Positions 10,337 to 31,891 of a stretch of 32,000 nt of DNA are shown in pieces. Position 1 is the stretch's first letter; every line of letters begins with the position of its first letter. Source of the stretch: Bellilinea caldifistulae (lineage in GTDB: Bacteria; Chloroflexota; Anaerolineae; Anaerolineales; Anaerolineaceae); contig NZ_LGHJ01000029.1 in NCBI RefSeq assembly GCF_001306055.1, forward strand, positions 44,683 through 76,682. The letters are read 5' to 3'. The position numbers and the translations under genes are program-made. The notes under the pieces were generated by a model that saw only the letters and a program-made list of their open reading frames with translations, was not told the origin of the DNA and did no database searches.

Positions 10337-10445
10337 CACAAAACAAGACTGCCTGAGTATGGGTATACTTTCGGCAGTCTGGCGATCTGATTATCTCAGA
10401 CCCATAACTTTGCGCCCTCATCTCGCGATGAGTTTGCCATTTTCG
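10337..10445 (-). promoter_or_regulatory. candidate c-di-GMP-I (GEMM-I) riboswitch aptamer plus intrinsic-terminator expression platform in the protease leader
   Basis: Minus-strand RNA reads GGCAAAC-UCAUC-GCGA-GAUGA-G-GGCGCAAAG-UUAUG-GGUCUGA-GAUAA-UCAGAUC-GCCAGACUGCC. This matches the remembered GEMM-I core of the Vc2 RNA: GGCAAAC, a stem, a GNRA loop, the stem again, GACGCAAAGC, a second hairpin, then a GC-N-R-G-R-Y-U-R-CC segment. Next comes the hairpin AGACUGCC-GAA-AGUAU-ACCC-AUACU-CA-GGCAGUCU followed by UGUUUUGUG. The 5' arm of that hairpin overlaps the 3' conserved aptamer segment. Confidence 0.6.
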
Positions 10446-10484
10446 GGTATTTAATTGGTGGATATTTATTTATTATCTTTATTC

Positions 10485-12460: not shown

Positions 12461-14311
12461 TCACAGCACAGCATCACCATATTTTTGTTCAACCAGATCC
12501 TTCAATCCCAACTCTTCTAACTTCCAGAGGAAAGGATAACCGCTCATTCTATCCCATCCGCTGTACCGATAATATTCTTCCAGCATGGTTGAGAGATCCG
12601 GAATGTTGCCTTCCTGGCCGCCGTCCAGAAGAGGTTGGAGGAGCAATCTGGGTAATCTTTCGTTTTCCGGTTTCCAGCCCAATTTCAGGTTATAAAGCCG
12701 CTTCATGTTCCACGCCCGCTCCCCGGCTTTGAGCATGGTTGTCATGTCCCAATCCCAACCCATTGCTGCATTAAGCAACTCTAAAATTTCGCCCGGTGAA
12801 ACAACCGCAAAATAGCAGGTCGTCAGGCTGTTGCACACCGTCCGCCAGTGTTGATGACGAGCAACCTGTTCTCCTTTACCCACAGGACTGAATCGGTCGG
12901 TAAAACCGATTCCGATCTCATCCACCGTACCGCCCAAACCAACATTGAAGTAATCACTCTGGTTATGGCATGCTCCGCGCGGTGAGGTCACATAAGCCAG
13001 CGCCTGCCCGGAAAAAGCCCGCGGGTCGTGCATTGCCACATCCAACCCATTCACTTGAACGGCTAAATCTTCATCACCGTAGGCCGTGGCCAGCGCTTTA
13101 CTGCCTTGAGCAAGCAAATTGCCTAAACCCTCTTTGGTTGCCATTTGCCTAAGCAGGGAAAAACAGGGCTCAGGATCTCCCCAGCGAAGTACTAGCCCAC
13201 CGCTATCCTTTGTGGTCAATTTACCTTGGCCATAAAGCAAATAAGCCAGGGCAATCACATTCCCAGCCGTAATTGTATCCATTCCCAATCGATCACACAG
13301 ATCACCCAGCGCAGTGATCGCCGCCAGATCATCCACCATCAATTGGGAACCGAAGGAGCAAATGGTTTCATACTCCGGTCCCTTCACAACCCCATTGGTT
13401 GGAAAACTTCCCTGCTCAATTTCCACTTCACGCCCGCAAGAAATCACACAACCCTGACAGGCCGTTGTCCCTCTTAAGATCGTTTCAGCCATGGTCGCCC
13501 CGCTGATCTTGTCGGCTCCTTCAAATCTGGCCGCAGTCCAGTATTTTTGGGGCATATCTCCAAGGTATTGCAGATACTCCGCACCTCCCGAAGTCCCGGT
13601 GGAGCGGAGCACTGCCGTCATATTCTGTTCGAGCAGTCGTTTGTTGGAAGCCACCCTTAACTTACGATATTCCTCATCACGCTCCATCACCAATCGTTGA
13701 GTACCCCGCACAGCTACCGCTTTCAATTTTTTGGAGCCCATTAGGGCTCCCATACCGGTGCGTGCAGCCAGCCTCCCATGGTCAGAAAGAATGCCGGCAA
13801 ACGGAACAAGATTTTCTCCTGCCAGACCAATGCAGGCAACCTTTACCTGTGGTATTCCGACTTCCCGGCGAATAATCTCCTGAGTCTGGTATGTATCTGC
13901 CTTTCCCCATAAATGCTCGGCAGAGCGAATTTCGATTTGATCATTGTAAATCCAGAGATAAACCGGCCGATCTGATACGCCCTCAATCCATAAAAAATCA
14001 ATCCCGGCAAAACGCAGTTCCGGCCCCACAAATCCGCCTATGTTGGATTCTCCCCACCAGCCCGTTTGCGGTGAACGCCCGCAAATCGTAAAACGCCCGG
14101 TGGTTGGCCCGGCAGTACCGGTCAGCGGACCGGTGGCAAACAACAATGGACTGCCCGGGTCAAGCGGTGAACGATTCACATCCAGCCGATCCCACAAAAG
14201 CCTGGCTGCCAAACCCGACGCCCCAATGAAACCCTCAATCCATTCAGGAGGAATTTGCTCTCTCCGAATCTGGCCATTGCTCAGATTGATTTTGACCATT
14301 TTTCCATACAT
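12461..14311 (-). CDS. aor: aldehyde:ferredoxin oxidoreductase (tungstopterin AOR family)
   Basis: AOR N-terminal MYGKMVKINLSNG...IGASGLAARLLW. The 4Fe-4S ligand motif CQGCVISC plus the later RGACHNQ. GMDTITAGNVIA. ATG at 14309-14311 is preceded by AAGGAGAG, which overlaps the ADH stop. Confidence 0.9.
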   Translation of the reverse strand: MYGKMVKINLSNGQIRREQIPPEWIEGFIGASGLAARLLWDRLDVNRSPLDPGSPLLFATGPLTGTAGPTTGRFTICGRSPQTGWWGESNIGGFVGPELRFAGIDFLWIEGVSDRPVYLWIYNDQIEIRSAEHLWGKADTYQTQEIIRREVGIPQVKVACIGLAGENLVPFAGILSDHGRLAARTGMGALMGSKKLKAVAVRGTQRLVMERDEEYRKLRVASNKRLLEQNMTAVLRSTGTSGGAEYLQYLGDMPQKYWTAARFEGADKISGATMAETILRGTTACQGCVISCGREVEIEQGSFPTNGVVKGPEYETICSFGSQLMVDDLAAITALGDLCDRLGMDTITAGNVIALAYLLYGQGKLTTKDSGGLVLRWGDPEPCFSLLRQMATKEGLGNLLAQGSKALATAYGDEDLAVQVNGLDVAMHDPRAFSGQALAYVTSPRGACHNQSDYFNVGLGGTVDEIGIGFTDRFSPVGKGEQVARHQHWRTVCNSLTTCYFAVVSPGEILELLNAAMGWDWDMTTMLKAGERAWNMKRLYNLKLGWKPENERLPRLLLQPLLDGGQEGNIPDLSTMLEEYYRYSGWDRMSGYPFLWKLEELGLKDLVEQKYGDAVL

Positions 14312-14324
14312 AGATGTGCTCTCC

Positions 14325-15488
14325 TTAGAAATCAATCGTTTTTCCCTCAAAAGCATATTGAAACAACCATCGCAGTTCCTGATCATCCGGAATTCGGGTG
14401 GACATAATCGTTTGGGTATCATTTAAGGCATTTTCCACTAAAAGTTCCATTTCGGCTTCCAGAGCCGCTCGGTCAATTCCCAAATCGGCAATACATAGAG
14501 GTTGATTGAGATCTTCCTCCAGTTTCCGTACCCTGGATGCCAAAATTGCAGCAGCTTGCTTTTCGTTTTCAGCGGGCAACCCAATAAACCGGCTGAGTTC
14601 CAGATAGCGGGTGCCGCCTTCGGGTGAGTTTGCACAAAACTCGATTGTATAAGGCAAAAACAAAGACACCGCTCTGCCATGAGGCACATGAAAAACCGCT
14701 CCTAAAGCATGTCCCAGCCCATGTGCCAGGGCTGCCATTGAGTTGCCGAACCCCAGCCTGGCAATCGTCGCGGCGTAGTGCATCTTCTCTCTGGCAGCTT
14801 GATCTCCAAAATAGGCTCTGGGTAAGTACTCAAAAACCATTTTTGCAGCATATACGCACAATCCATCGGTAAAGTCATTATGATAGGTTGAAGTGAATCC
14901 TTCAATGGCGTGGGTCAGCGCATCCAAGCCGGTATCAGCCGAGATTCGGGCTGGCAAGTCTCTAATCAGCTGTGGGTCTATAATGGCAATGTCCGGAACA
15001 ACCTCGCGACTACCCAGCCCCAGTTTCCGCCGCGACTGGTGATCAGACAGGACAACTGCCCAGGTAACCTCGGCCCCGGTGCCGGATGTTGTGGGGATTG
15101 CCACTAAACGGGCTTTTTGGCGCAAGCCATAAAATTCGATCGGGTTAATCGCGTCCGGTTGGACATCCGGCCGGGCATACAAAACCCACATTCCTTTGGC
15201 GGCATCAATGACCGAGCCTCCTCCAATGGCTATAATCCAATCTGGCTGAAAATCGAACATTCGTTGTGCCCCGCGTTTCACCGTCTCCAGGTCTGGATCG
15301 GGTTGCACCTCATCGAATATATCCATCTGCATGCCGGTATTCTTCAATTGCTCGAAAACCAATTGCACCAGACCCAGGCGGTTCAGGGTCACATCGGAAA
15401 CAATCATGGCTTTTGAACCGGTCAAAGAAGCCAGATGAGAAAGAGCATCTTCACCAAATACAATGAGCGGCGAGGAAAAATACCACAT
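14325..15488 (-). CDS. iron-containing (group III) alcohol dehydrogenase
   Basis: GGGSVIDAAKG nucleotide motif. Metal-ligand histidines in HAIEGF and HGLGHALGAVFHVPHG. SD GGGAGG lies upstream. Confidence 0.9.
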   Translation of the reverse strand: MWYFSSPLIVFGEDALSHLASLTGSKAMIVSDVTLNRLGLVQLVFEQLKNTGMQMDIFDEVQPDPDLETVKRGAQRMFDFQPDWIIAIGGGSVIDAAKGMWVLYARPDVQPDAINPIEFYGLRQKARLVAIPTTSGTGAEVTWAVVLSDHQSRRKLGLGSREVVPDIAIIDPQLIRDLPARISADTGLDALTHAIEGFTSTYHNDFTDGLCVYAAKMVFEYLPRAYFGDQAAREKMHYAATIARLGFGNSMAALAHGLGHALGAVFHVPHGRAVSLFLPYTIEFCANSPEGGTRYLELSRFIGLPAENEKQAAAILASRVRKLEEDLNQPLCIADLGIDRAALEAEMELLVENALNDTQTIMSTRIPDDQELRWLFQYAFEGKTIDF

Positions 15489-17298: not shown

Positions 17299-17382
17299 CT
17301 ACACACCTCCATGAATTTTGTATGATGGTAAAAATTATAACTTCATCTAAAAATGACTGTGCCATTAAATCGGAGGATAAAA

Positions 17383-18432
17383 ATGAGCTCATACCGCACC
17401 CTTCAATGGGATGATCGAACGAACACCCTTGTGCTTTTAGATCAGCGTTTCCTGCCCCATCGTATTCAATTTGTGACTTGTGGGGATGAGCAGCAAACTG
17501 CCGAAGCTATTCGAAATATGACCATCCGCGGTGCGCCGGCGATTGGTGCGGCAGCCGCTTTTGGGCTGGCGCTGGCAGCCTTCCGCTGCACCAGCTCAAA
17601 CCCTCAAGAAATTCGCGAACGAATCGAAAACGCCGCTCGTCAATTGGCATCCGCGAGACCAACTGCGGTCAATTTGCAATGGGCATTAACAAGAGTATTG
17701 AACAAACTCGCCACTGCGGAAGGAAATCCGGAAGACTTGCGCAAGCTCATTCTCGAAGAAGCCATCCAGATTGCAGAAGAAGATGTGCAAATCAACAAAA
17801 AAATCGGTTTGAATGCTCTACAAATCCTTCCGGAAGAAATCAATTTCATTCATCACTGTAACACCGGCGCCTTAGCCACAGTTGATTATGGTACCGCACT
17901 GGGCATCATCCGAACTGCCCATGAACATGGGCGCAAAGTATTTGTCTTCGTAGATGAAACCCGCCCACGCCTTCAGGGAGCAAAATTGACCGCCTGGGAA
18001 CTTCAACAGTTAGGGATCCCATTCAAGGTCATTGTGGACGGTGCTTCCGGCTTTGTGATGAAGCGTTTTCGAATTGACGCAGTCGTAGTCGGTTGCGACC
18101 GCGTGGCTGCCAATGGCGATACGGCCAACAAAATTGGTACCTACAACCTTGCCCTGGCTGCCAAAGCCCATGGCGTTCCTTTTTATGTTGCCTGTCCCAC
18201 ATCCACCATTGACCTGAGAATCACCTCCGGTGACCAGATTCCCATCGAAGAACGGGAAGCGGAAGAAATCACCCATCTGGAAGGTACGCCAATTTGCCCG
18301 CAGGGAACTGCCGTTTTCAACCCGGCTTTTGATGTTACCCCAGCAGAATTGATCACTGCCATCATTACCGAAAATGGCGTTTGTTACCCGCCATTTATCC
18401 ATTCATTAAGTGGGGTTGTTCATCCCGCGTGA
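17383..18432 (+). CDS. mtnA: S-methyl-5-thioribose-1-phosphate isomerase (eIF-2B alpha/beta/delta-like family)
   Basis: Motifs IRGAPAIGAAAAFG, HCNTGALAT, VDETRPRLQGAKLTAWEL and DRVAANGDTANKIGTY. ATG at 17383 follows GGAGG. The ORF track start at 17353 has no SD. Confidence 0.88.
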   Translation: MSSYRTLQWDDRTNTLVLLDQRFLPHRIQFVTCGDEQQTAEAIRNMTIRGAPAIGAAAAFGLALAAFRCTSSNPQEIRERIENAARQLASARPTAVNLQWALTRVLNKLATAEGNPEDLRKLILEEAIQIAEEDVQINKKIGLNALQILPEEINFIHHCNTGALATVDYGTALGIIRTAHEHGRKVFVFVDETRPRLQGAKLTAWELQQLGIPFKVIVDGASGFVMKRFRIDAVVVGCDRVAANGDTANKIGTYNLALAAKAHGVPFYVACPTSTIDLRITSGDQIPIEEREAEEITHLEGTPICPQGTAVFNPAFDVTPAELITAIITENGVCYPPFIHSLSGVVHPA

Positions 18433-19694
18433 TTGATCCCGTAAATTTCGGTCAACAGCGCCTTCAGGTGCATTTCCAATACCGAAAACGAATAATGCTT
18501 CCGGGCAACCCGGTAATTTACCCGGCACATTTCCTGGGCATATTCTGCATCCTTTAGGGCACGCCGTGCCTGTTGAATGGATTGCTCGGTAATAAAACCA
18601 TCAAACTCAATGACCTGAAAACCTTTGGGTTTAATGTCAATCTCGTAGATGGAATAGCGATTAACCACAATCGGGCGGTGGAAGTAAATTGCTTCCAGAA
18701 AGGCGTTGCCAAATCCTTCTATTTCAGAAGGATAAGTGACCAGATCAGCATGAGGGTAAACATCGTAGAGCGTGTAAATCTTGCGTCCATCGGGTGTTCT
18801 TCCGCGTTTTTCTTGAATAATATCCGAAACGAATAATGTATTGACCCCCATCCGCTTCGCATAATCCCTCACCCGATGTTCGTACTCTCTGCCTTCATCC
18901 CCGGCTGCGTGAGAGATCACCAGGCGAGCAGGAATATCCAGACGGGAAACCAGCTCAATCGCATGTTCAATCCCCTTGCGTTGAACCACACGGGTTGGCT
19001 GAAGGATTAATTTCTCGCCCTCATCAAGCCCCAAATCCTTTCGAAGAGATTGAGCATATTCATCCAGAGGGGGTGGCGGGGTTTCAAAATCCATCACATT
19101 CGGCACGATTCGGCAGGAGGCCCCAGTCCTTAAGCTCAATTGTTGTCCAGCAACAGAATTGATGACCACGTGTTTTACGCTGGGAAAAGCCGGGGGGAAA
19201 GCCATCGTCAGATAATCCCAGACACAATTGACAAGAAACCGCTTGCGCTCCCAGTACATATCATGGTGATGGGCAATCACCGGGAATCCGGTTTCTGCAA
19301 TGAACTCAGAAATTGCCATGCCCAGCGGAATATTGACCGGGATAGAGAGGGCATTTTCTGATACCAACAGATCAATTTCAAAGTGTTTGACAAATTTCTG
19401 GAGGTGATCCTTGAAATAGGCCTTGTATTCCTGGATTTTTCGGGTTAATTGCGGAGACCGAATGGTTTGGTTGAAAGCCTCTTCATGGAGGGCTTCCATC
19501 TCCGGATGATGAAAAAACAAATTGGGTACCACATAACTGACCTCAGCCGGCCGGTCACACAAACCGGCAAAATAATAACAGGAATGTCCCAATTTTTTAA
19601 AAACAACAGCCCACTTTTCAGTTTCAAGGCTGACTCCATCCGTACCCGCAAATCGTGTCGAAACAAATCCAATCCTTAACGAAGAGTTTTTCAT
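18420..19694 (-). CDS. GT-B fold retaining glycosyltransferase (GT4-like), last gene of the glucosylglycerate-type operon
   Basis: EX7E signature EGFGNAFLEA. N-terminal RIGFVSTRFAGTDGVSLE. ATG at 19692-19694 follows AAGGAG, 16 nt after the GH13_18 stop. Confidence 0.8.
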   Translation of the reverse strand: MKNSSLRIGFVSTRFAGTDGVSLETEKWAVVFKKLGHSCYYFAGLCDRPAEVSYVVPNLFFHHPEMEALHEEAFNQTIRSPQLTRKIQEYKAYFKDHLQKFVKHFEIDLLVSENALSIPVNIPLGMAISEFIAETGFPVIAHHHDMYWERKRFLVNCVWDYLTMAFPPAFPSVKHVVINSVAGQQLSLRTGASCRIVPNVMDFETPPPPLDEYAQSLRKDLGLDEGEKLILQPTRVVQRKGIEHAIELVSRLDIPARLVISHAAGDEGREYEHRVRDYAKRMGVNTLFVSDIIQEKRGRTPDGRKIYTLYDVYPHADLVTYPSEIEGFGNAFLEAIYFHRPIVVNRYSIYEIDIKPKGFQVIEFDGFITEQSIQQARRALKDAEYAQEMCRVNYRVARKHYSFSVLEMHLKALLTEIYGINHAG

Positions 19695-19710
19695 GGGGGA
19701 TAACTCCTTT

Positions 19711-21447
19711 CTATGAAGCACTCTGAACCAACCAACGGTGTTGATAGGGTGAGAGTTGAACCAACCGAGTAAACTCTTCCTCCCTTGAAGAAAGCAAATC
19801 CTTCCACCGGTTTATGGAATCCGGCAACTCAACAAACACCTCATCTTTTGAAAAATTGTGTACACAGAACACAGCCCGGTTAGATCGAGGATCCAGACGG
19901 ATTAAGCCAAAAATCCGCTCATCCACCAAACTCACTTTCTGCTCGGCAAGGGGGTGAAACGCCGCTTCTTTTCGTCTCACGCTCAACATTCGGTTTAAAC
20001 CACTCCAGATTTTTGCTCGTCTGCCCGCCGGATTCTCAATTTCAGCAAGCACTTCCTCAGCAGCTAGTTTTTGTCGGTTGATGGTGCGGTTTGCCCCGGT
20101 CAGATTGACTCCTTCTTTCCAGCCCCTGGAACCAATCATCGAATGCACATAAATTGCCGGTAAACCTTTCATGGAAAGCAATACAGCATGCGCGGTGAGA
20201 AAACGACCAATCATCTCTTCTTCTGTAAGTGGAGATTCGGGATCTCCCATGGCATCAAAAAAATTCACATTTAATTCGTATGGAGAGCGGCTTCCATCCG
20301 GATTTGCTTTGTAACTGACCAGTCCCCCTAATTTTTGAATACGTGTAACCAGTTGGTCAATTTCCGTGTCGGTCAAAATTCCCCGCACTGGATTGATTCC
20401 AACGCCATCGTGCGAGGCAAGAAAGTTAAAAAAGGCGGTCTGATCAGATGGTGTTTGAAGATCACTTGCCCAGCGGGTCAAATAGCGGGTGTTTTGGGTT
20501 TGAACAGTATGGAGAACCAGAGGAGGTAGAGCAAAATTGTAAACCATGTGGGCTTCGTTCATCCCATCACCGAAGTAAGAAACATTCTCCTGATGAGGAA
20601 CATTGGTTTCGGTGATGATCTTTGCATATGGGGCAACTTCACTCAATAGACATCGCCAGAACTGGATAATCCAATGAGTTTGGGGTAAATGAATGCAGGT
20701 TGTACCAATTTCCTTCCACAAGTAAGCAATCGCATCCAAACGGATAAACTGTGCCCCATAGCGGACATAATCCAAAAGTACCCCGGTCATTTTTTGAAAG
20801 ACCTTCGGGTTAGAATAATTTAAATCCACCTGATCGGCGCTAAATGTCGTCCAAACGTGTATGATCCCGTCTTTACTCTGAAATTCGGTCAACAATGGCA
20901 ACGCCCGCGGACGAACCACCCATTTCAACCGTTCATCACTGGGATCTGCAGTGATGTAAAAGTCCTGATACTGTGGATCACCCGATAAAAATCTTTGGAA
21001 CCATTCATGACTGACCGAGGTGTGATTCACCACCGCATCAAACATCAATCGAAAGTTTTTGGAAAGATCTCGAATATCCTGCCAATCCCCAAAATCCGGA
21101 TGGACCGATAAATAATCTGCAACGGAAAAACCATCATCCGATGTGTAAGGGTAAAACGGGAGAAGATGAATGGAGGAGATATTCGGATAAAACAAGCGTA
21201 GGGCAACATCCAGCAATGTTTTCAGCGGTTTTTCTCCTCCACGCCGAAATTGATCGGCATAGGTTATCAAAACCGCATCCGACTGATCGAGGGGCAATGG
21301 CTGCGATTGCACCGCTAAAATTTGACGGGTATCTTCTGCCTTTTTGAGAATTTGCTCAAAACTATCCCAATCCGCATTCTCCGGGTAAATAGATCGAAAG
21401 AGCTCTTTTAGTTTTTCCTTCGTTATGTCTGATAATGGACTGATCAT
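19711..21447 (-). CDS. GH13 subfamily 18 disaccharide/glycoside phosphorylase (sucrose-phosphorylase-like, long YcjM/glucosylglycerate-phosphorylase-like form)
   Basis: GH13 catalytic motifs FIRLDAIAYLWK (nucleophile Asp), ITETNVPH (acid/base Glu) and FLASHDGVG. Also LITYADQF and LLPFYPYTSDDGFSVADY. At 578 aa it is longer than classical sucrose phosphorylases. The ATG overlaps the upstream stop (ATGA at 21444-21447). Confidence 0.85.
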   Translation of the reverse strand: MISPLSDITKEKLKELFRSIYPENADWDSFEQILKKAEDTRQILAVQSQPLPLDQSDAVLITYADQFRRGGEKPLKTLLDVALRLFYPNISSIHLLPFYPYTSDDGFSVADYLSVHPDFGDWQDIRDLSKNFRLMFDAVVNHTSVSHEWFQRFLSGDPQYQDFYITADPSDERLKWVVRPRALPLLTEFQSKDGIIHVWTTFSADQVDLNYSNPKVFQKMTGVLLDYVRYGAQFIRLDAIAYLWKEIGTTCIHLPQTHWIIQFWRCLLSEVAPYAKIITETNVPHQENVSYFGDGMNEAHMVYNFALPPLVLHTVQTQNTRYLTRWASDLQTPSDQTAFFNFLASHDGVGINPVRGILTDTEIDQLVTRIQKLGGLVSYKANPDGSRSPYELNVNFFDAMGDPESPLTEEEMIGRFLTAHAVLLSMKGLPAIYVHSMIGSRGWKEGVNLTGANRTINRQKLAAEEVLAEIENPAGRRAKIWSGLNRMLSVRRKEAAFHPLAEQKVSLVDERIFGLIRLDPRSNRAVFCVHNFSKDEVFVELPDSINRWKDLLSSREEEFTRLVQLSPYQHRWLVQSAS

Positions 21448-22031
21448 TTTCCTTTTCCATTCAAATCTGGCGGCCAAAAAATAATTTTCGGATCAGCATT
21501 TTCAGGGATCATCTCGAACGCTTTTGAAAACGGCATTCCTAAAGATGCAACAATCAGCGTTGCAATCGCCAATCCATGCGAAACAATTAATATCCTTTCC
21601 CCCGGATGACGGGCGGCAATTTCATCCACACAGGATTTCACCCTTTCCGCTACTTCTTTCAGACTTTCACCTCCCGGCGGGCGGCTTTCGAGTGGATTTT
21701 CCCTGCGGTCTTCAAAAAAATCCGCATACCGTTCGCGAATTACGCTGAATAACTGTCCTTCCCACTCGCCTTGATGAATTTCTCGCAGGCGCGGATCAAC
21801 TTTTACCTCCCTCTCATCAGCAAGAATTTTTGCCGTCGAGAAGGCTCGCTGCAGGTCACTGGAATAAATCGCCGCAAATTTTACATCGCTTATCTTTCTC
21901 GCTAAATCGCGCGCCTGCCTGATTCCAATTTCGTTCAAAGGTCTATCAGCCTGCCCCTGATAACGTCCCTCAACATTCCAATCCGTTTGACCATGTCTCA
22001 CCAACCATAACTCGGTTTTCTTCCCTTGCAT
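21444..22031 (-). CDS. histidine-phosphatase superfamily (phosphoglycerate-mutase-like) protein; candidate glucosyl-3-phosphoglycerate phosphatase
   Basis: RHG motif LWLVRHGQTDWN and second catalytic His in IVSHGLAI. Its position directly after the GpgS domain gene supports the role, which is inferred. Confidence 0.8.
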   Translation of the reverse strand: MQGKKTELWLVRHGQTDWNVEGRYQGQADRPLNEIGIRQARDLARKISDVKFAAIYSSDLQRAFSTAKILADEREVKVDPRLREIHQGEWEGQLFSVIRERYADFFEDRRENPLESRPPGGESLKEVAERVKSCVDEIAARHPGERILIVSHGLAIATLIVASLGMPFSKAFEMIPENADPKIIFWPPDLNGKGK

Positions 22032-22037
22032 AAAACC

Positions 22038-23873
22038 CTACCCCGTGATTTCAGTTTCTTTGTTCAGGTAAAATTTAGCTCGATATTCAGGCAGTGTAAT
22101 CATCGGTGGACGATCCTGCTCAATAATTTCCTTAACTTCCAGATAGTAATTGCCGCCTTCGTATTGAACAATTTTCATTGAACGGTTGATGTCTTCAAAC
22201 AAAGGCTGCTTAAAGCGTTCTTCCAGTTTTTTCAATACCGCCTGGATGATCACAAAGGACATTTTACTCAAAGCCGTCAGGCTTTGATTGTGGTGGATTC
22301 GCTCCAACAAATCCACCTGCGCAATTGCCGAAAGACCAAATTTTTCAAAAACATCAATCAATAAACCGGTCTCCACGCCATATCCGGTAAAAAAGGTCAG
22401 GGTTTCCAGCACCTTTCGCCTGCCTCCGTACTCTCCAGAAAGCGGCTGAATCACCCCCGAAAGTTCCGGGTAAAAAAGGTTGAGCAATGGCCTGGCGGTC
22501 AGTTCGGTTACCCTTCCCCCACCGGTTGATTGAACCCTACGGCCAGTTTTCAACGGCCTTTGATAAAAACCTTTCACAAAATGAATGTTCTTATTTAACA
22601 ACAACGGGCCAACCACCCCATAAACAAATCGAGGGTGAATATTGACGATATCCGAATCGATCCAGATAATAATGTCACTACTGGTCACATACAAACTCTT
22701 CCACAGGGCTTCCCCTTTTCCCTCTCTGGCCCCATACTGAGGCAGCACCTGCTGATGGATGTAAACCGGTATTCCAAGGGATTCGGCAATTTCTCTGGTT
22801 CGATCAGTGGAGTTTGAATCCATCAGTACAATCTCGTCCAGAAGTGGATATTTCTCAACCAGCGATTTCCGAATAGTGCCGATCACATTTCCGACCGTTT
22901 CCTCCTCATTCAAGGCAGGTAATGCAAGGCTAATCGTCAACCCCTGTTCCTCTTTCAAACGGACAAGATCGGCAATATGATCGAACTCGCTGGCGTGAAA
23001 GGTGTTTTCGGCAAACCATTTATCCACCAGAATGGAGATGGCTTTAGAACCAATCGTTTCTTTTTTCCAATCATCTTCACGGCGTGGAATTTCCTGTTGG
23101 GACTTAACCACAACGACATCCCGTCCAACCTCATCCAGCAATTGATCGGCTATTTTTCCCAAACTTTCCTGCCGCTCGACTCCTGCTTCGGCAATGCCCA
23201 CGATGGTAATATCGGAGTGGCGGGAAAGTTCTAAAATATCCTGATGAGGATTGCTCGATGCTTTTCGTTGATAATTGACCTCAGGCAAATTAGGTAAAAT
23301 TCTTGAAATACCCAACAACGGCGCTTCGACAACTTCTGCACTGGTTTCGGGTAAGAAGAGATGGACTGCGTTTAACTCCGACCGCCGCATGGCAAGGGCT
23401 AATCTGAGGGATAACTGGGCATGCGGCCCACCGCGCAAGGGTATGCCAATTTTAGGCTGGAGTTTTGTGAAGTTGCCATGGATGATGGCAACGTTAGCAT
23501 TGATCCGTTTAATCCCTTCGGCAAGATTTGGCTGATGCTTGGGTAGCGTAGCCCAATCCAGTATCACCAGATCCGTTCGATGCTCCTGAAGATACGAATT
23601 AATCCCATCCCAAATGTCATAGGTGACGCTTACCCCAATCTGAGCGTCAATATGGTGAGCACGAATGTAGTCGTACAGACATTTTCGTAATTTTCTCGCC
23701 CTTGCATTCCCCGCCGAAAGAGAAAGGGAGGAGTCAACATCCACAATACCCAGCAGGGTAAGAGTGGTTTCACTGAGCAAGTTACAGAAATTGATGATAT
23801 TTTTGTGAAGCGATTCATCAAAAACCGGTACAACCAGTCTTCGGAATGGCCGAAAAATTCTTTGAGAGTACAT
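22038..23873 (-). CDS. gpgS: fusion protein: tandem universal-stress-protein (USP)-like N-terminal region plus glucosyl-3-phosphoglycerate synthase (GT81) domain
   Basis: The C-terminal half carries GpgS hallmarks LALPALNEEETVG, DSNSTDRT, GKGEALW, WIDSDI and GGGRVTELTARPLLNLFYPELSGVIQPLSGEYGG. The N-terminal 280 aa or so show two USP-like alpha/beta units (RLVVPV...LVILDW; IGIPLRGGPH...VVVVKS). ATG at 23873 follows GAGGTGA. Confidence 0.85.
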   Translation of the reverse strand: MYSQRIFRPFRRLVVPVFDESLHKNIINFCNLLSETTLTLLGIVDVDSSLSLSAGNARARKLRKCLYDYIRAHHIDAQIGVSVTYDIWDGINSYLQEHRTDLVILDWATLPKHQPNLAEGIKRINANVAIIHGNFTKLQPKIGIPLRGGPHAQLSLRLALAMRRSELNAVHLFLPETSAEVVEAPLLGISRILPNLPEVNYQRKASSNPHQDILELSRHSDITIVGIAEAGVERQESLGKIADQLLDEVGRDVVVVKSQQEIPRREDDWKKETIGSKAISILVDKWFAENTFHASEFDHIADLVRLKEEQGLTISLALPALNEEETVGNVIGTIRKSLVEKYPLLDEIVLMDSNSTDRTREIAESLGIPVYIHQQVLPQYGAREGKGEALWKSLYVTSSDIIIWIDSDIVNIHPRFVYGVVGPLLLNKNIHFVKGFYQRPLKTGRRVQSTGGGRVTELTARPLLNLFYPELSGVIQPLSGEYGGRRKVLETLTFFTGYGVETGLLIDVFEKFGLSAIAQVDLLERIHHNQSLTALSKMSFVIIQAVLKKLEERFKQPLFEDINRSMKIVQYEGGNYYLEVKEIIEQDRPPMITLPEYRAKFYLNKETEITG

Positions 23874-23882
23874 CAACTCACC

Positions 23883-25121
23883 TCAACCTTGATTTTGGAG
23901 AACATCCCTGATTAAGGGTGCGATTTTACGGGTATAAATCGCCTCCCAGGTAAATTCCTTCTTCACTTTTGACCGAAAAGAGTACACCGGGTCTTTGTTT
24001 AATGATTCTCCAATCCTTTTAGCCACAATTTCCGGAGAATCTTTTAGAGAAAACAAATTGGCATAACCATCCGCCAGTGCCCGCAACGGCGCAATATCAC
24101 TACAAAAGATTAATAAACGGCTCAGACCAGCTTCCAGGACGGGTATACCAAAGCCCTCCTCTTTGCTGGTCAATAACAAAACATCCGCCATACGATAGAA
24201 AGAACCGATCCACTCCTCCGAAATGCCGTTGGGGAAATATTCGGCCAGGAAGAAAACCTGGTTCTCCAAATCCAGCAGTCTTCTCAGTTCAATGAGCTCT
24301 TTCAGATATTGCTCGTTGGTCGGATTATGAGCACCTGTTGGGCCGGTCACCACCAGTTTCACCCCGGGAAAGTGGTGTTTAAGACTGGCGATAATGTGCA
24401 AGCCCATTTCAAGATTCTTTCTGCGGGTCACCCGAATTGGCATCAGGACAAACGGTTCAGCCGAAAGGAAATGATGCTGGCTTACAAATTGGTACAAATC
24501 GTCCGTCAACCCAATCAAGTTCTTCTGGTTGATGCCCCCCGGAATGACCTTGACCTTGTCCTGCTCGATCCCGGTCAAATGCACCATTTCCTGCTTTCGA
24601 GCCTCAGAAACCACTACATGGGTTACACCTTCCCAGGCAATTTTGCACAAATTCCATGGATAAGCCGAATACAACTCACCATTGTACTGACTCGCTGTCC
24701 ACGCAAAGTCATGATGCCACAAAATTACCGCTAATTTTTCCGGTCTGGAGGAAATCAGGCGGTAGAGAGCGGCCGTCAAAGCCAGATTTTTATGCTGCGA
24801 AGCAACGTTATGCGCAATCAACAATCTTGCATCGGCGAGAACTTCAACCAGCCAGTTGAAAATTTGACCGGCTATATCCTCGAAATTCAAAGGAACTTGA
24901 CCCTGGTCAAGGTGTTTTTTTAATTCAAGAATTTGGGGATCGCGCGAATCCAGCAGCGGATTTGCCTTCACTTTAATGTGAGGATGCCACGAATTTCCCC
25001 TGCCACATAAGATTTCAACATCGTAACCAAAATTGGACAGACATTCAGCCTGACTGGCCATCACATTTTCTACGCCACCGATAATTGGCGGAGCAGAATA
25101 ATGTAAAAACGCAACTTTCAT
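23883..25121 (-). CDS. GT4 retaining glycosyltransferase, first gene of the operon
   Basis: N-terminal MKVAFLHYSAPPIIGGVENV and EX7E signature EGFGIPVLEA. SD GGGAGAA lies before the ATG. Confidence 0.85.
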   Translation of the reverse strand: MKVAFLHYSAPPIIGGVENVMASQAECLSNFGYDVEILCGRGNSWHPHIKVKANPLLDSRDPQILELKKHLDQGQVPLNFEDIAGQIFNWLVEVLADARLLIAHNVASQHKNLALTAALYRLISSRPEKLAVILWHHDFAWTASQYNGELYSAYPWNLCKIAWEGVTHVVVSEARKQEMVHLTGIEQDKVKVIPGGINQKNLIGLTDDLYQFVSQHHFLSAEPFVLMPIRVTRRKNLEMGLHIIASLKHHFPGVKLVVTGPTGAHNPTNEQYLKELIELRRLLDLENQVFFLAEYFPNGISEEWIGSFYRMADVLLLTSKEEGFGIPVLEAGLSRLLIFCSDIAPLRALADGYANLFSLKDSPEIVAKRIGESLNKDPVYSFRSKVKKEFTWEAIYTRKIAPLIRDVLQNQG

Positions 25122-25284
25122 CCATTTCTCCCAGAATCGTAATTTCCTTTGTCGAAAATTGTTCTAAAAGATTGTAACACATGCAATTTTGGTTTTTTCG
25201 CAAATTATTAGACAAATCAAAGGAATTTTTGGAGAGGGTGATGTACAATCAAAAATGGATTACTTTGATAAAAGAGGCATAAAA

Positions 25285-29210: not shown

Positions 29211-31154
29211 TCAGGAGACGACTTTTAGCCAAACAAACTGATAGGGTTCCAGCATCAAAGCATTGATTGTGGAATATGGCTGACTGCTAACCAGATCAAC
29301 GAAGTGATAGCCCAACCCATGCAAACGAATTTCATTCCCATCAATGATTTGGGGCTGTTCGCTGAAATTGCAAATGGCTAACACCCGTTCATTTCGTTTT
29401 TGACGCACATAAGAAAACAGGTGCTTCGACCTCAGACTGAGAATTTCAGTTTCCGCCCCGCCAAAGGCACTGATTGCTTTTCGCAATTCAATTAATTTTC
29501 TCAAGCGGGTGTACAACTTTCCTTCCAGAGTTGTCTCGTCAAACCGCCGGTTGTATTTCTCCCAGTCAGCAAATGGACGGTGCACCCAACGTGAATCGCG
29601 CACTTTTGCCGGGTCTTCACGATAGCGATAATCGTTTAAGGTGGCCACTTCATCCCCAAGATAAATTAACGGGATGCCGCCTATGGATAGAATCACACTG
29701 TGGATGAGGATAATCCGCCGCAAAGCCAACTCAACTTCTCGCTCAGTTTCCTCGTAAATCGCCTTTTCCAATCCCGCCAAAGAAGCACAAGTGCCAGAAA
29801 TTCTTGCATCACCAGTGCGGGGATTTTCCTGAAACGGCAAACCCCGCGCAAAACTTCCAGGAAACTTACCGGTATAGAAATCATTCAAAAAACGGCGATG
29901 GTCAAAGCCGTTGATGCCCAACTGAGCCGCATCCTCATCTGAAAAAGTCCATCCGATATCGTCGTGACAGCGCACATAATTCACCCAGGCACAATCCGGA
30001 TGAATCTTAAACCGTTCCTGCATCGAAAACGTGAGCAAATCGGTCTGGCGGGTTGCCAGTGTATTCCACAGCAAAGCCATCAACAAAGGATTGTAAGAAA
30101 TCTGGCATTCTTTGGGGTGGATATAACGCACCACCTCATCGGGATGAACGATTGCCTCGGATTTAAAAATCAATGAGGGAGCTGAAATCCGGGCTATTGA
30201 ATTAAAAGCCTGGATTAGAAGATGGGCTTCTGGCAGGTTTTCACAATTTGTTCCCATTTGTTTCCAGAGAAAGGCAACCGCATCCAGACGCAGGACTTCG
30301 ACGCCTGCATTTGCCAGGAAGAGCATTTCCTCAGCCATACGGTTGAAGACCACCGGATTGGAATAATTCAGATCCCATTGATTGGAATGAAAAGTCGTCC
30401 AGACCCATTTACCCATATCTGGAAAATAAGTAAATGCACCTGGATGCTCTTCGGGAAAAATTTCCCGCAAGGTGCGTTCATAGGCATCCGGCATGGTGCG
30501 GTCGTCGAACATATAATAATAAGCCTGATACTCCGGATCTCCCGCCCGAGCCTTTAGCGCCCACTCATGTTCGTTAGAGGTGTGGTTAAACACAAAATCC
30601 AGCACCAGACTGATTCCCTCTTTGCGCAACTGTTGTGCCAGTTCAGATAATTCCCCCATGCTCCCAATGGCTGGATTGACTTCACGGTAACTGGAAATTG
30701 CATATCCACCGTCATTTTCCCCTTCCGGACAGCGGAACAATGGCATCAGATGCAGGTAAGTCAATCCCAATTCCTTAAAATAGGGAATTTTCTGCTGGAT
30801 ACCCTTCAAGTTTCCAGCGAATAAATCCACGTAGCACACACCGCCAAGCATCTGATTCGACTGGAACCAATCCGGATGATTTTCACGATCCGCATCCAGT
30901 AATTTCAATTCAGGGTTACGCTGAGTCCAGTAAACAGCAAGGACCTCCAGCAATTCTTCAATGTGATAAAAGAAATCATAATGCGTCCCGTATAGATGAT
31001 GAAGAATTCGAAAAAGATCTTCAAAATTCCGGCTCAGGCGGCTTTCAAACTTTTGCCAATCCTCTGAATGACCGGCAATGTAATCGGCAAACCGCGTCCT
31101 GAGACGCGGTTGAAGCCGATCCAGAGTCCGTTTCGCTTCTCTGGAAAGATCCAT
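29211..31154 (-). CDS. amylosucrase (GH13 subfamily 4 sucrose glucosyltransferase)
   Basis: [80 protein letters not shown] and [10 protein letters not shown]. Confidence 0.88.
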
Positions 31155-31174: not shown

Positions 31175-31891
31175 TTATCCTTTTACAGAACCTGCCATTA
31201 AACCGCGTACGAAATAGCGTTGTAAGGCAAAGAAAACGGTCAACGGCAAAATCATGCTGACAAAAGCACCGGATGTAAGCAAATGCCAGTCCTGCCCTTT
31301 CTCTCCAACCATGGCTGCCAGCGCACTGGTAACAACCCGGTTTTGATCGCCAAGAAAGACCAGAGCCACCAGATAGTCATTCCAAACCCACAAGAACTGG
31401 AAAATGGCAAAGGATGCCAGGGCAGGGATGGATAAGGGCAGAATCAGGCGGGTAAAAATAGTGAAGTGCGAAGCCCCGTCAATAAAAGCCGATTCGAGAA
31501 TATCACGCGGGAGAGAACCGATGTAATTGAACAAGAGATACACTGCCAGCGGCAATCCGAATCCGGTATGTGCCAGCCACATAGCGAGGTATGTGCCGTT
31601 TAAATTCAATTGAGTGTAATCTCTCAAGATTGGCACCAATGCAATTTGCAGGGGAACAACCAGCAAAGCAACCACCAGTGTAAATAACAATTTTCTGCCG
31701 GGAAAGTTAAGCCACGCGAACCCATACGCCGCAAATGCAGCAATCAAAATGGGGATGATCGTCGAAGGAACCGCAACCGCGATTGAATTGAGAAAGGCAC
31801 CCCCCAGGTTATTGCCCTTTCGGGTAATTTCATTCCCGGATGCGTCCCGAAAACGAATCTCCTTTCCGCTTAAGAGATTGTTGAAAAACAA
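31175..31891 (-). CDS. carbohydrate ABC transporter permease (MalG/SugB-like); 5' end unresolved
   Basis: EAA-loop region ESAFIDGASHFTIFTRLILPLSIPAL. The C-terminal RGLMAGSVKG motif is typical of sugar ABC permeases. Only 5 TM helices are encoded after the TTG at 31891. The adjacent frame stays open to the window edge. Confidence 0.75.
   Translation of the reverse strand: MFFNNLLSGKEIRFRDASGNEITRKGNNLGGAFLNSIAVAVPSTIIPILIAAFAAYGFAWLNFPGRKLLFTLVVALLVVPLQIALVPILRDYTQLNLNGTYLAMWLAHTGFGLPLAVYLLFNYIGSLPRDILESAFIDGASHFTIFTRLILPLSIPALASFAIFQFLWVWNDYLVALVFLGDQNRVVTSALAAMVGEKGQDWHLLTSGAFVSMILPLTVFFALQRYFVRGLMAGSVKG

Follow-up and report, generated by a model that had tools for sequence, protein, structure and literature searches.

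A conserved five-gene operon of Bellilinea caldifistulae with a predicted role in making and recycling a hexosyl-glucosylglycerate

What product is expected of an operon that combines a synthase of glucosyl-3-phosphoglycerate (GpgS) with a phosphatase, a phosphorylase and two retaining glycosyltransferases of family GT4? Five such genes, G1 to G5, lie co-directionally on the minus strand from position 25121 to 18420 of the window, by which we mean the whole analysed stretch of 32,000 nucleotides from Bellilinea caldifistulae. Our preferred reading, to which we assign a probability of roughly 0.6, is that the operon makes and recycles a hexosyl-glucosylglycerate of the mannosylglucosylglycerate (MGG) type. 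If so, the product would be a sugar-acid compound with a glucosylglycerate (GG) core that protects against stress, and the operon would be a variant, predicted from sequence, of the known GG/MGG pathway. As a preliminary description of this DNA had remarked, the five-gene composition matches no described pathway that we found in the searched literature, which also yielded no report on the solutes of Bellilinea or any Anaerolineae.

Table 1. Features of the operon, in window positions
Feature	Position	Strand	Basis
G1, retaining GT4 glycosyltransferase, 412 aa	23883..25121	-	Pfam, motifs, fold
G2, tandem USP + GT81 GpgS, 611 aa	23873-22038	-	ORF and domain matches
G2 N-terminal ~280 aa, diverged tandem universal-stress-protein (USP) domain	23034..23873	-	orthologue and profile matches
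G2 C-terminal ~330 aa, GT81 GpgS domain	22038..23033	-	NCBIfam and PDB
G3, histidine-phosphatase superfamily, branch 1, 195 aa	21444..22031	-	PF00300, motifs
G4, GH13_18 2-O-alpha-glucosylglycerate phosphorylase (GGaP), 578 aa	19711..21447	-	YcjM identity, motifs
G5, retaining GT4 glycosyltransferase, MggS-like family, 424 aa	18420..19694	-	NCBIfam, motifs, fold
Intergenic region upstream of G1, divergent	25122..25188	-	67 nt; direct reading

The gene arrangement follows from the listing of open reading frames and from direct reading of the minus strand. G1 and G2 are separated by 9 nucleotides (TGA-GGTGAGTTG-ATG) and G2 and G3 by 6 (TAG-GGTTTT-ATG), G3 and G4 overlap by 4 (ATGA), and the 16 nucleotides between G4 and G5 (TAG-AAAGGAGTTATCCCCC-ATG) include a perfect AAGGAG Shine-Dalgarno sequence. 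These junctions are exactly those given in the preliminary description, and its labels for the five products are confirmed by matches to GT4, USP::GpgS, His_Phos_1, GH13 and GT4. Between positions 16500 and 27000, terminator-like sites are not in excess (12, versus 12.0 in shuffled sequence), and neither are promoter-like sites (12 versus 13.4). In the region upstream of G1, GGGAGA resembles a Shine-Dalgarno sequence and TGTTACAAT, at about 25179-25171, an extended -10 element; this resemblance to the consensus marks the region as the probable operon promoter, at a level of promoter-scan signal not above that of shuffled sequence. A convergent MtnA-like gene downstream overlaps the G5 stop by 13 nucleotides, and a divergent acyl-CoA dehydrogenase gene lies upstream of the operon across the intergenic gap; both are unrelated to the operon.

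The operon is real and conserved. Related loci were retrieved through G5, which is therefore present in all of them by construction. The grouping goes beyond chance, since 7 other genome loci contain all five families together and 8 more contain four of the five. Among the 35 Chloroflexota-labelled loci obtained in this way, G1 is present in 25, G2 in 24, G4 in 21, G3 in 12 and a GH63 gene in 8. Within the Chloroflexota-labelled loci, gene order inside each of the blocks G1-G2(-G3) and G4-G5 is preserved while the blocks trade places. G2 directly follows G1 in Chloroflexota-type loci that have both on one strand, G3 is directly 3' of G2 in 11 related loci, and G4 and G5 are neighbours on one strand in 26. 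The two blocks are movable modules across Anaerolineae, often joined by a gene resembling GH63 glucosyl/mannosylglycerate hydrolases. In 6 loci this gene follows G5 as an insertion; among solved structures, the Thermus MG/GG hydrolase TTHA0978 is nearest to it, ahead of YgjK and mycobacterial GgH. Several Chloroflexota loci have osmoregulatory neighbours after the cluster, namely genes for a Na+/H+ exchanger and a c-di-AMP receptor.

The C-terminal domain of G2 matches the GpgS equivalog NF010496 with 383 bits (cutoff 262) over positions 5-306 of the 307 in the profile, and has a DSD (DxD) motif. As a member of this family, it would convert NDP-glucose and 3-phosphoglycerate into glucosyl-3-phosphoglycerate (GPG). 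Its matches in the PDB are Rubrobacter MpgS/GpgS (3F1Y, 257 bits) and mycobacterial GpgS (230-246 bits); because the nearest solved relative is a dual MpgS/GpgS, even the first sugar is uncertain. The N-terminal part has no Pfam match in the window protein itself. An orthologue with 53% identity over its full length has two stretches that match Usp (61 bits), and a profile of 20 orthologous N-termini matches the tandem-USP structures of Rv2623 (2JAX, E = 2.7e-8), 3CIS and MJ0577. The USP domain is present in 22 of the 24 Chloroflexota-labelled loci having G2; GpgS proteins of Desulfobacterales-type loci are without it and are 325-332 amino acids long. This part, fused to GpgS, presumably serves in regulation or sensing and would respond to stress or nucleotides. 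No description of a USP::GpgS fusion was found in the searched literature.

G4 shares 45% identity with E. coli YcjM over 568 amino acids (E = 2e-172) and carries the catalytic motifs RLDA, TETN and SHD. Both published GGaP signatures are present, TETN at residue 279 and the glutamate of loop A ('SPYE') at residue 389, instead of the sucrose-phosphorylase loop-A motif N(L/V)D(I/L/V)YQ, and the protein fails the sucrose-phosphorylase model TIGR03852 (191.6 bits, cutoff 334). Membership in the glucosylglycerate phosphorylase family, not that of sucrose phosphorylase, is strongly shown, and predicts the reversible reaction of GG and phosphate to alpha-glucose 1-phosphate (Glc1P) plus D-glycerate. 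G3 belongs to PF00300 (205.7 bits), with RHG at residue 12 and SHG at 151. Its closer relatives are PhoE (113 bits in the PDB), phosphoserine phosphatase and CobC; Rv2419c, the GpgP of M. tuberculosis (4PZ9, 80 bits), is more distant. Genomic context and the Rv2419c precedent lead us to presume that G3 would act as the 3-phosphatase for GPG and/or hexosyl-GPG; GPG, and weakly also MGPG, is a substrate of a histidine-phosphatase GpgP (PMC3240985).

G1 and G5 are homologues with 23% identity to each other, and both are GT-B enzymes in which the E-x7-E motif is intact. The best and sole strong family match of G5 in NCBIfam is MggS (NF041101), which is full-length (profile positions 2-429 of 431) and sub-threshold (243 bits, equivalog cutoff 640); ten diverse members of the G5 family score 185-279 bits. 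G5 has E-x7-E at residue 326, HHHD at 142 and R-x4-K at 235, its AlphaFold model (pLDDT 81) has a GT-B fold, and it is 100% identical to the NCBI entry 'glycosyltransferase [Bellilinea caldifistulae]'. G1 matches Glycos_transf_1 (59 bits) and Glyco_transf_4 (38 bits), and has E-x7-E at residue 322, HHD at 136 and R-x4-K at 230. Its top NCBIfam match also is MggS, at 52.6 bits and confined to the N-terminal half, and its AlphaFold model (pLDDT 91) is a GT-B fold closest to MshA and BshA at 15-18% identity. The G1 family is a sister GT4 family restricted to Chloroflexota, with an hhalign score of 240 to the G5 family and 187 to a rare GT-B family (f9) considered below. Some homologues of G1 and G5 carry the JGI name 'mannosylglucosylglycerate synthase'. 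Position and distant homology make G1 a candidate MggA-like hexosyltransferase, which would add a second hexose to GPG or GG, and G5 most likely interconverts GG and hexosyl-GG.

On our preferred reading, the operon would consist of module A (G1-G2-G3) and module B (G4-G5). Module A would produce hexosyl-GG through GPG. Module B could provide a second, non-phosphorylating entry, from Glc1P and glycerate to GG and then to hexosyl-GG, or it could recycle the solute, with the GH63 hydrolase added in many relatives. A GG core extended by GT4 enzymes to an MGG-like glycoside, with recycling by the GH13_18 enzyme, was the proposal of the preliminary description; it is favoured by all computational tests applied, namely the equivalog score of G2, the signatures and YcjM identity of G4, the full-length MggS match of G5, and GH63 in relatives.

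The neighbours of G5 in other genomes suggest that it may act in turnover besides, or in place of, synthesis. In other phyla, G5 at 55-62% identity adjoins G4, and G5-G4 pairs without GpgS occur in Desulfobacterales, Spirochaetes, Verrucomicrobia and one gammaproteobacterial MAG, with a PGM/PMM gene after the pair in four loci. G5-family domains are fused to GH63 (protein P0304) and GH125 (P0256). The P0304 locus includes LacI, an ABC sugar importer, GH130 and a second G5 orthologue, and P0256 adjoins genes for glucokinase, G6PD and 6PGD; these partners look catabolic in character. They favor a tentative alternative in which module A alone is biosynthetic and G5 and G4 are a degradative or salvage pair. 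G5 would take the outer hexose off hexosyl-GG, either reversibly to NDP-hexose (as in TreT) or phosphorolytically (as in some GT4 enzymes), and phosphorolysis of GG by G4 would follow, with both sugars regained in activated form. GGaP has indeed been regarded as a metabolic sink for GG (PMC7178133). However, the motifs of G5 are alike for a Leloir transferase and a phosphorylase. To our knowledge, neither an MGG phosphorylase nor a reversible MggS has been reported. This alternative also overlaps our preferred reading, in which G5 may run in either direction, and T. maritima MggS, the one protein of the wider family to have been characterised, is a synthase using GDP-mannose and GG, according to the account given in PMC3736172.

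A different arrangement is found in other non-Chloroflexota loci, where G5 adjoins the f9 family (470-530 amino acids), a HAD phosphatase and plain GpgS. A corresponding layout is known from R. baltica, in its mggS-homologue/mggB/SPase cluster and 530-aa MggA (PMC3736172). In another locus (L046), a second G5 paralogue flanks GGaP. A second GT-B enzyme thus accompanies G5 outside Chloroflexota, and within the Chloroflexota-labelled loci retrieved via G5, G1 and G5 occur together in 25 of 35 and in all 24 that have G2. Such co-occurrence is easier to explain if one product needs both enzymes, in which case G1 and G5 would act in series, not in parallel. They would then make a dihexosyl-glucosylglycerate (a trisaccharide glycerate, such as a glucosyl-glucosylglycerate or mannosyl-MGG type) or a short GG-primed oligosaccharide. 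The MggS homologue of R. baltica had no synthase activity and made no MGG from GG (PMC3736172), so the true acceptor of the family may differ. Nonetheless, serial action appears unlikely. In P. mobilis and R. baltica, MggA likewise occurs alongside an MggS homologue, but MGG alone is accumulated (PMC3736172); domain and family profiles and neighbour-gene look-up reveal no methyltransferase, acyltransferase or polymerising enzyme encoded in the operon; and the searched literature ties no gene to a trisaccharide glycerate.

It is quite improbable that the operon makes plain GG (or mannosylglycerate) while both GT4 enzymes belong to the synthesis of some unrelated glycoconjugate, for example a cell-envelope component, a polysaccharide or an MGLP-like primer. 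Most homologues are named only 'glycosyltransferase (involved in cell wall biosynthesis)' at NCBI/JGI, fold searches with both GT4 models yield generic GT4 enzymes only, and the G2 domain is equally close to dual MpgS/GpgS and to GpgS. However, the adjacency of G1 to G2 and of G4 to G5 survives many rearrangements and spans phyla, MggS is the sole strong family match of G5, and the closest structures, BshA and MshA, are GT4 enzymes with small-molecule acceptors. Moreover, domain profiles and neighbour-gene look-up reveal no genes for membrane, flippase, lipid-carrier or polymerase functions at the operon.

We reject, as scarcely credible, the sucrose-type module offered as an alternative in the preliminary description, with a sucrose-phosphate-synthase (SPS)-like GT4, a GH13_18 sucrose phosphorylase and a tie to amylosucrase: although an R. 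baltica homologue from a similar cluster phosphorolysed sucrose (PMC3736172) and SPS structures are among the generic fold matches of the GT4 enzymes, the motif and model tests on G4 contradict it, YcjM is without sucrose phosphorolysis (PMC7178133), and neither GT4 matches the SPS model in NCBIfam. Scores of G1 and G5 against trehalose- and glycogen-synthase models also are only 17-29 bits (cutoffs 302-775). An amylosucrase-like gene (29211-31154; 776 bits to 1G5A) is indeed present at a distance of about 4 kb, but four unrelated genes separate it from the operon and it was not found in the related loci.

Among known systems, Petrotoga mobilis has two routes to MGG, namely GpgS-MggA-MggB and Ggs-MggS (Fernandes et al. 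2010, summarised in PMC3736172). In that summary, as in Bellilinea, the gene for GpgS lies beside one for a GT4 hexosyltransferase (gpgS-mggA in Petrotoga, G1-G2 in Bellilinea), another, homologous GT4 is present (MggS and G5, respectively), and both systems include a phosphatase step; the Petrotoga product is a GG-derived diglycoside. In contrast to that system, GpgS here is of the actinobacterial GT81 type rather than the Petrotoga/Methanococcoides type (only 36 bits to NF040724) and bears a tandem USP, Ggs is absent, GGaP is within the operon, and G5 falls far under the MggS equivalog cutoff.

R. baltica makes MGG with GpgS, MggA and a HAD-type MggB, and its operon-like cluster places an MggS homologue with a GH13_18 phosphorylase and a phosphatase (PMC3736172), resembling the G5-G4 pairing here and in the Desulfobacterales, Spirochaetes and Verrucomicrobia loci. 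Unlike in R. baltica, the phosphatase here is of the histidine-phosphatase superfamily, G1 replaces the MggA-like f9 family, and the genes form one operon, whereas gpgS and mggA are scattered there. Sucrose was a substrate of the R. baltica SPase; G4, in contrast, has GGaP signatures.

The mycobacterial GG branch of MGLP synthesis, with GpgS Rv1208 (GT81), GpgP Rv2419c (histidine phosphatase) and GgH (GH63), shares with our operon the GpgS family and the phosphatase superfamily, and with related Chloroflexota clusters the GH63 hydrolase family. However, the mycobacterial genes are dispersed, the USP fusion, GGaP and an MggS-like GT4 are absent there, and GG is extended there to a methylated, acylated polysaccharide; the Bellilinea operon encodes no methyl- or acyltransferase. 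Known GGaPs, those of Meiothermus silvanus, Spirochaeta thermophila and E. coli (YcjM), resemble G4 in length class (578 versus 559 amino acids), (T/S)ETN motif and loop-A glutamate, and reportedly tend to adjoin GpgS and GpgP genes (PMC7178133). Whereas ycjM resides in an uptake and catabolic operon in E. coli, G4 is in an operon with biosynthetic genes and is paired with an MggS-like GT4.

Genes G1 to G5 encode, in order, a GT4 enzyme, a USP::GpgS fusion, a histidine phosphatase, a GH13_18 phosphorylase and a second GT4 enzyme. The preliminary description had placed them in one co-directional minus-strand operon in which 9 nt separate G1 from G2 and 6 nt G2 from G3, G3 and G4 overlap by 4 nt (ATGA), and 16 nt lie between G4 and G5. 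This layout is confirmed both by the listed ORFs and by reading the strand directly. A Shine-Dalgarno-like sequence precedes each gene. Both borders of the operon are formed by unrelated genes, namely a divergent acyl-CoA dehydrogenase gene located 67 nt upstream of G1, and a convergent MtnA-like (IF-2B family) gene whose 3' end overlaps that of G5 by 13 nt, leaving no space for a terminator between the two. Scans for consensus promoters and terminators returned counts equal to the shuffled-sequence expectation, and are therefore given no weight as evidence.

Coordinates of the operon, of other features in the window and of features in related loci (L numbers; each locus has its own coordinates)
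Feature	Located in	Coordinates	Strand	Product	Basis
G1, GT4	window	25121-23883	minus	412 aa	ORF listing and direct strand reading
G2, USP::GpgS	window	23873-22038	minus	611 aa	ORF listing and direct strand reading
G3, histidine phosphatase	window	22031-21444	minus	195 aa	ORF listing and direct strand reading
G4, GH13_18 phosphorylase	window	21447-19711	minus	578 aa	ORF listing and direct strand reading
G5, GT4	window	19694-18420	minus	424 aa	ORF listing and direct strand reading
MtnA-like (IF-2B family) gene	window	17353-18432	plus		
Amylosucrase homologue	window	29211-31154	minus		
ABC permease fragment	window	31175-31891			
c-di-GMP-I-GGC aptamer (RF03167)	window	10369-10447	minus		
S8 subtilase	window	10247-7659	minus	862 aa	
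Aldehyde:ferredoxin oxidoreductase and alcohol dehydrogenase tandem	window	12461-15488	minus	653 aa; 387 aa	
f9 gene	L073	8301-9707	minus		
f9 gene	L014	6677-8113	minus		
f9 gene	L076	2993-4585	plus		
f9 gene	L048	6830-8392	plus		
Locus with G5-paralogue::GH63 fusion	L087	655-12455		1039 aa (fusion)	
GH125::G5-like fusion	L088	710-3943		1077 aa	
GGaP gene between two G5 paralogues	L046	6979-11239			

Elsewhere in the window, a c-di-GMP-I-GGC riboswitch aptamer, which scores 69.4 bits and exceeds the gathering score of 59 (E = 1.2e-14), lies ~120 nt upstream of a secreted-type S8 subtilase gene with PA and Fn3-like domains, which suggests that this protease is under c-di-GMP control. A separate tandem of aldehyde:ferredoxin oxidoreductase and iron-containing alcohol dehydrogenase genes, whose longest ORFs overlap by ~98 nt, is probably an aldehyde/alcohol interconversion pair.

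The ~330 C-terminal residues of G2 form a GT81 domain of the GpgS family. They pass the GpgS equivalog model NF010496 with 383 bits, well over its cutoff of 262 (G2 residues 283-595; profile positions 5-306 of 307), score 230-257 bits against GT81 structures, and carry the DxD metal-binding motif of GT-A enzymes as DSD at domain residue 126, inside IWIDSDIVN. The closest solved relative is Rubrobacter MpgS, an enzyme of dual MPG/GPG activity (257 bits; GPG is glucosyl-3-phosphoglycerate), with mycobacterial GpgS close behind at 246 bits. The ~280 N-terminal residues of the window protein alone have no Pfam match, and three results identify them as a diverged tandem USP domain. An orthologue in another genome (L003), 53% identical over its full length, matches Usp with 61 bits in two stretches; its alignment with G2 spans the entire N-terminus; and a profile of 20 orthologous N-termini matches the tandem USPs 2JAX (Rv2623, E = 2.7e-8) and 3CIS, with values in the range of 3e-8 to 6e-8. 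By tblastn mapping, the USP region is present in 22 of the 24 Chloroflexota-labelled loci that carry G2. The searched literature does not describe a fusion of USP to GpgS, and this architecture suggests direct control by stress signals of the first committed step.

G3 matches PF00300 with 205.7 bits and carries the motifs RHG (residue 12) and SHG (residue 151), features that place it in branch 1 of the histidine-phosphatase superfamily. Its proposed likeness to the mycobacterial phosphatase GpgP (Rv2419c) thus holds at the level of the superfamily and not as a closer kinship, since G3 scores 80 bits against Rv2419c (4PZ9) and 113 and 109 bits against PhoE and phosphoserine phosphatase, respectively. 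Its top NCBIfam match, CobC, lies below the cutoff (155.6 versus 162.9 bits). Because G3 is no nearer to Rv2419c than to these other phosphatases, its substrate is inferred from context, and gene context is likewise the basis for regarding it as a candidate GpgP. Rv2419c itself dephosphorylates GPG and acts weakly on MPG and MGPG (PMC3240985).

The assignment of G4 as a GH13_18 glucosylglycerate phosphorylase (GGaP), also made in the preliminary description, is well supported by comparison with E. coli YcjM, to which G4 aligns over 568 aa with 45% identical and 63% positive positions (E = 2e-172). Signatures of GGaP are (T/S)ETN at beta-strand 5 and a loop-A Glu that replaces Gln (PMC7178133), and G4 has both, as TETN at 279 and SPYE at 389; the latter aligns with SPYE of YcjM and DIYQ of 7QQI. 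An alternative in which the operon is a sucrose module can be set aside. Loop A of G4 reads RSPYELN and lacks the sucrose-phosphorylase motif N(L/V)D(I/L/V)YQ, the sucrose-phosphorylase model TIGR03852 gives 191.6 bits, below its cutoff of 334.4, neither GT4 enzyme matches a sucrose-phosphate synthase (SPS) model, and the nearby amylosucrase gene is outside the conserved cluster. The product of that gene matches the Neisseria polysaccharea amylosucrase 1G5A with 776 bits; an ABC permease fragment adjoins it, and between it and the operon lie four genes of unrelated function.

G1 and G5 are intact retaining GT4 enzymes of an MggS/MggA-like group. The sole strong family match of G5 is MggS, whose equivalog model NF041101 aligns at positions 2-429 of 431 with 243 bits, under the cutoff of 640, and G5 is accordingly classed as an MggS homologue and not an equivalog. 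None of 10 diverse sequences scanned from the 150 G5-family representatives reaches 640 bits (range 185-279), and cluster look-ups for 10 further representatives gave no informative names. G1 matches NF041101 only in the N-terminal (acceptor) half, with 52.6 bits, and is 23% identical to G5. Glycos_transf_1 is matched with 59 bits by G1, which has both Pfam halves, and with 44 bits by G5. The E-x7-E motif is EGFGIPVLE in G1 and EGFGNAFLE in G5, and R-x4-K is found in both. Annotations of these genes are generic glycosyltransferases, although some JGI records read "mannosylglucosylglycerate synthase".

Structure models of both proteins adopt the GT-B fold (pLDDT 91 for G1 and 81 for G5), and their best fold matches are MshA, BshA and SPS (E ~1e-13 to 1e-16). 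These searches return generic GT4 enzymes only, and so confirm the fold and carry no information on acceptor or donor. The nearest solved relatives, MshA and BshA, are GT4 enzymes with small-molecule acceptors, at only 12-18% identity; matches to SPS and TreT fall in the same range and are not better. Clustering of the two enzymes with sucrose-phosphate, trehalose or glycogen synthases, which would have argued for a different pathway, was not observed: neither matches an SPS model, and scores of 17 bits for TreT and 24-29 bits for glgA_Coryne compare with cutoffs of 302-775. A role as cell-wall GT4 enzymes is rejected in view of the G1-G2 and G4-G5 adjacencies, the MggS match of G5, the small-molecule acceptors of the structural relatives and the lack of membrane, flippase, lipid-carrier and polymerase genes.

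Conservation of the operon in related genomes was assessed with 85 loci, which came from three separate searches for G5 homologues and from a 13-sequence alignment run once against species-representative genomes. These loci were retrieved via G5, and their gene content was mapped by tblastn. Relatives of G5 occur in more than 590 species-level genomes of several phyla. All five families are found together in 7 loci, and G4-G5-G1-G2 in 8 more, one of which belongs to a Bacteroidota-labelled MAG. Of the 35 loci labelled Chloroflexota, 25 contain G1, 24 G2, 21 G4, 12 G3 and 8 a GH63 gene. Two modules are apparent. G1-G2(-G3), or module A, is contiguous in nearly every locus with both G1 and G2, except for a Thermoflexales locus (L004/L005) with G2 on the opposite strand, and G4 and G5, or module B, are same-strand neighbours in 26 loci. 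Either block can come first, with A-B in Bellilinea and L007 and B-A being the commonest. The GH63 gene lies directly behind G5 in 6 loci. Among solved structures its product is closest to TTHA0978, the mannosyl/glucosylglycerate hydrolase of Thermus; YgjK and the mycobacterial GgH come next. Five loci (L019, L020, L025, L029 and L086) carry, downstream of G2 or G3, genes for a CitMHS transporter, an Na+/H+ exchanger, a conserved 121-aa protein with no Pfam match, and a c-di-AMP receptor (PF06153). The transporter, exchanger and receptor fit an osmoadaptive role, and hint at a larger osmoregulatory island in Chloroflexota relatives.

Outside Chloroflexota, G5 relatives with 55-62% identity are found in Desulfobacterales, Spirochaetes, Verrucomicrobia and one gammaproteobacterial MAG, where they stand alone, beside G4 or beside a rare GT-B family that we call f9. 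In four loci, a G5-G4 pair is followed by a 707-aa PGM/PMM gene. In a Verrucomicrobiia MAG (L046), a GGaP gene lies between two paralogues of G5, with identities to G5 of 49% and 58%, so that G5 has a second GT4 as companion even in a locus that lacks G1. Members of f9, about 400-530 aa long in seven loci, adjoin G5 relatives and have no Pfam match; all 120 matches listed of 396, mostly from Spirochaetes, are named "hypothetical protein". A plain GpgS gene is near f9 in L073 and L014, together with a HAD phosphatase gene in L073. This layout mirrors that of Rhodopirellula baltica, in which MggB, a HAD phosphatase of 324 aa, is encoded in an operon-like cluster together with an mggS homologue and a homologue of sucrose phosphorylase, and in which MggA, a rare enzyme of 530 aa, has its homologues in these same phyla (PMC3736172). 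Judged by its protein size, its rarity, the taxa that carry it and the HAD phosphatase nearby, f9 probably represents the MggA family of the R. baltica type, which public databases leave unannotated. Profile comparisons with hhalign (G1-G5, 240; G1-f9, 187, with a probability of 99.7%; G5-f9, 140) show that G1, G5 and f9 are all related.

We favour, with a probability of roughly 0.6, a pathway that makes and turns over a hexosyl-glucosylglycerate of the mannosylglucosylglycerate (MGG) type, with G5 working toward synthesis or toward turnover. In module A, the GT81 domain of G2 would make GPG, G1 would add a second hexose, and G3 would remove the phosphate. The position of G1 beside G2 corresponds to that of mggA beside gpgS in P. 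mobilis and in Coraliomargarita. In module B, G4 would connect glucosylglycerate (GG) with Glc1P and glycerate, and G5 would connect GG with hexosyl-GG. This module could serve as a non-phosphorylating entry or, equally, as a recycling route; an entry of this kind, in which GG made by a phosphorylase is extended by MggS, was hypothesised by Cunha et al. (PMC3736172).

The strongest rival holds that G5 is purely catabolic and that G5-G4 is a turnover pair. This is improbable, although several observations favour a turnover role for G5. One metagenomic locus (L087), which has the look of a gene set for taking up and degrading an MGG-like glycoside, encodes a fusion of a G5 paralogue to GH63 beside a LacI regulator, an ABC importer for sugars, GH130, a GT4 and, at 54% identity, a further G5 orthologue. 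Another G5-like domain is fused to GH125, an alpha-mannosidase family, next to genes for glucokinase, G6PD, 6PGD and ribose-5-phosphate isomerase, and the R. baltica MggS homologue had no synthase activity (PMC3736172). However, the Thermotoga MggS acted as a synthase in vitro (as cited in PMC3736172), and in the favoured hexosyl-GG pathway G5 may therefore work in either direction.

Somewhat less plausible still is a broader proposal in which the cluster makes an undescribed solute, such as a dihexosyl-GG or a hexosyl-GG with a non-mannose sugar, its synthesis gated by the tandem-USP sensor on GpgS. The G5 family would then be a reversible or phosphorolytic GT4 and not a simple MggS, and together with GGaP (and PGM/PMM elsewhere) would recover both sugars in activated form, thereby conserving energy. 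We are more doubtful again that G1 and G5 act sequentially to give a trisaccharide glycerate. A polysaccharide primer resembling that of mycobacterial methylglucose lipopolysaccharide, also suggested in the preliminary description, is rejected because the operon contains no methyl- or acyltransferase genes.

Anaerolineae are abundant filamentous bacteria of digesters, sediments and the subsurface. The searched literature contained no report of a compatible solute for Anaerolineae, no link between glucosylglycerate and Anaerolineae or Bellilinea, and nothing relevant on "glucosylglucosylglycerate" or newer MggS work; the operon offers a concrete, testable candidate solute pathway for this group. 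It also includes GGaP, an enzyme whose role in the cell is described as not yet confirmed. To our knowledge, the only characterised relative of the G5 family is the Thermotoga MggS, and knowing which reactions G1 and G5 catalyse, and in which direction, would settle what "MggS homologues" do. These two enzymes could also turn out to be new catalysts, of interest to biotechnology, for forming glycosides or for phosphorolysis.

Current understanding is not contradicted by the operon, which provides a clean system for the in vivo roles of MggS homologues and GGaP, and is best classed as a variant of known GG and MGG pathways that differs in five respects. Pieces that are scattered in Petrotoga, Rhodopirellula and mycobacteria are here combined in a single transcription unit, the GT81 GpgS carries a USP sensor, and GGaP is integrated. 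In addition, a histidine phosphatase stands in place of the HAD-type MggB of the known MGG pathway, and a Chloroflexota-specific GT4, G1, in place of its MggA.
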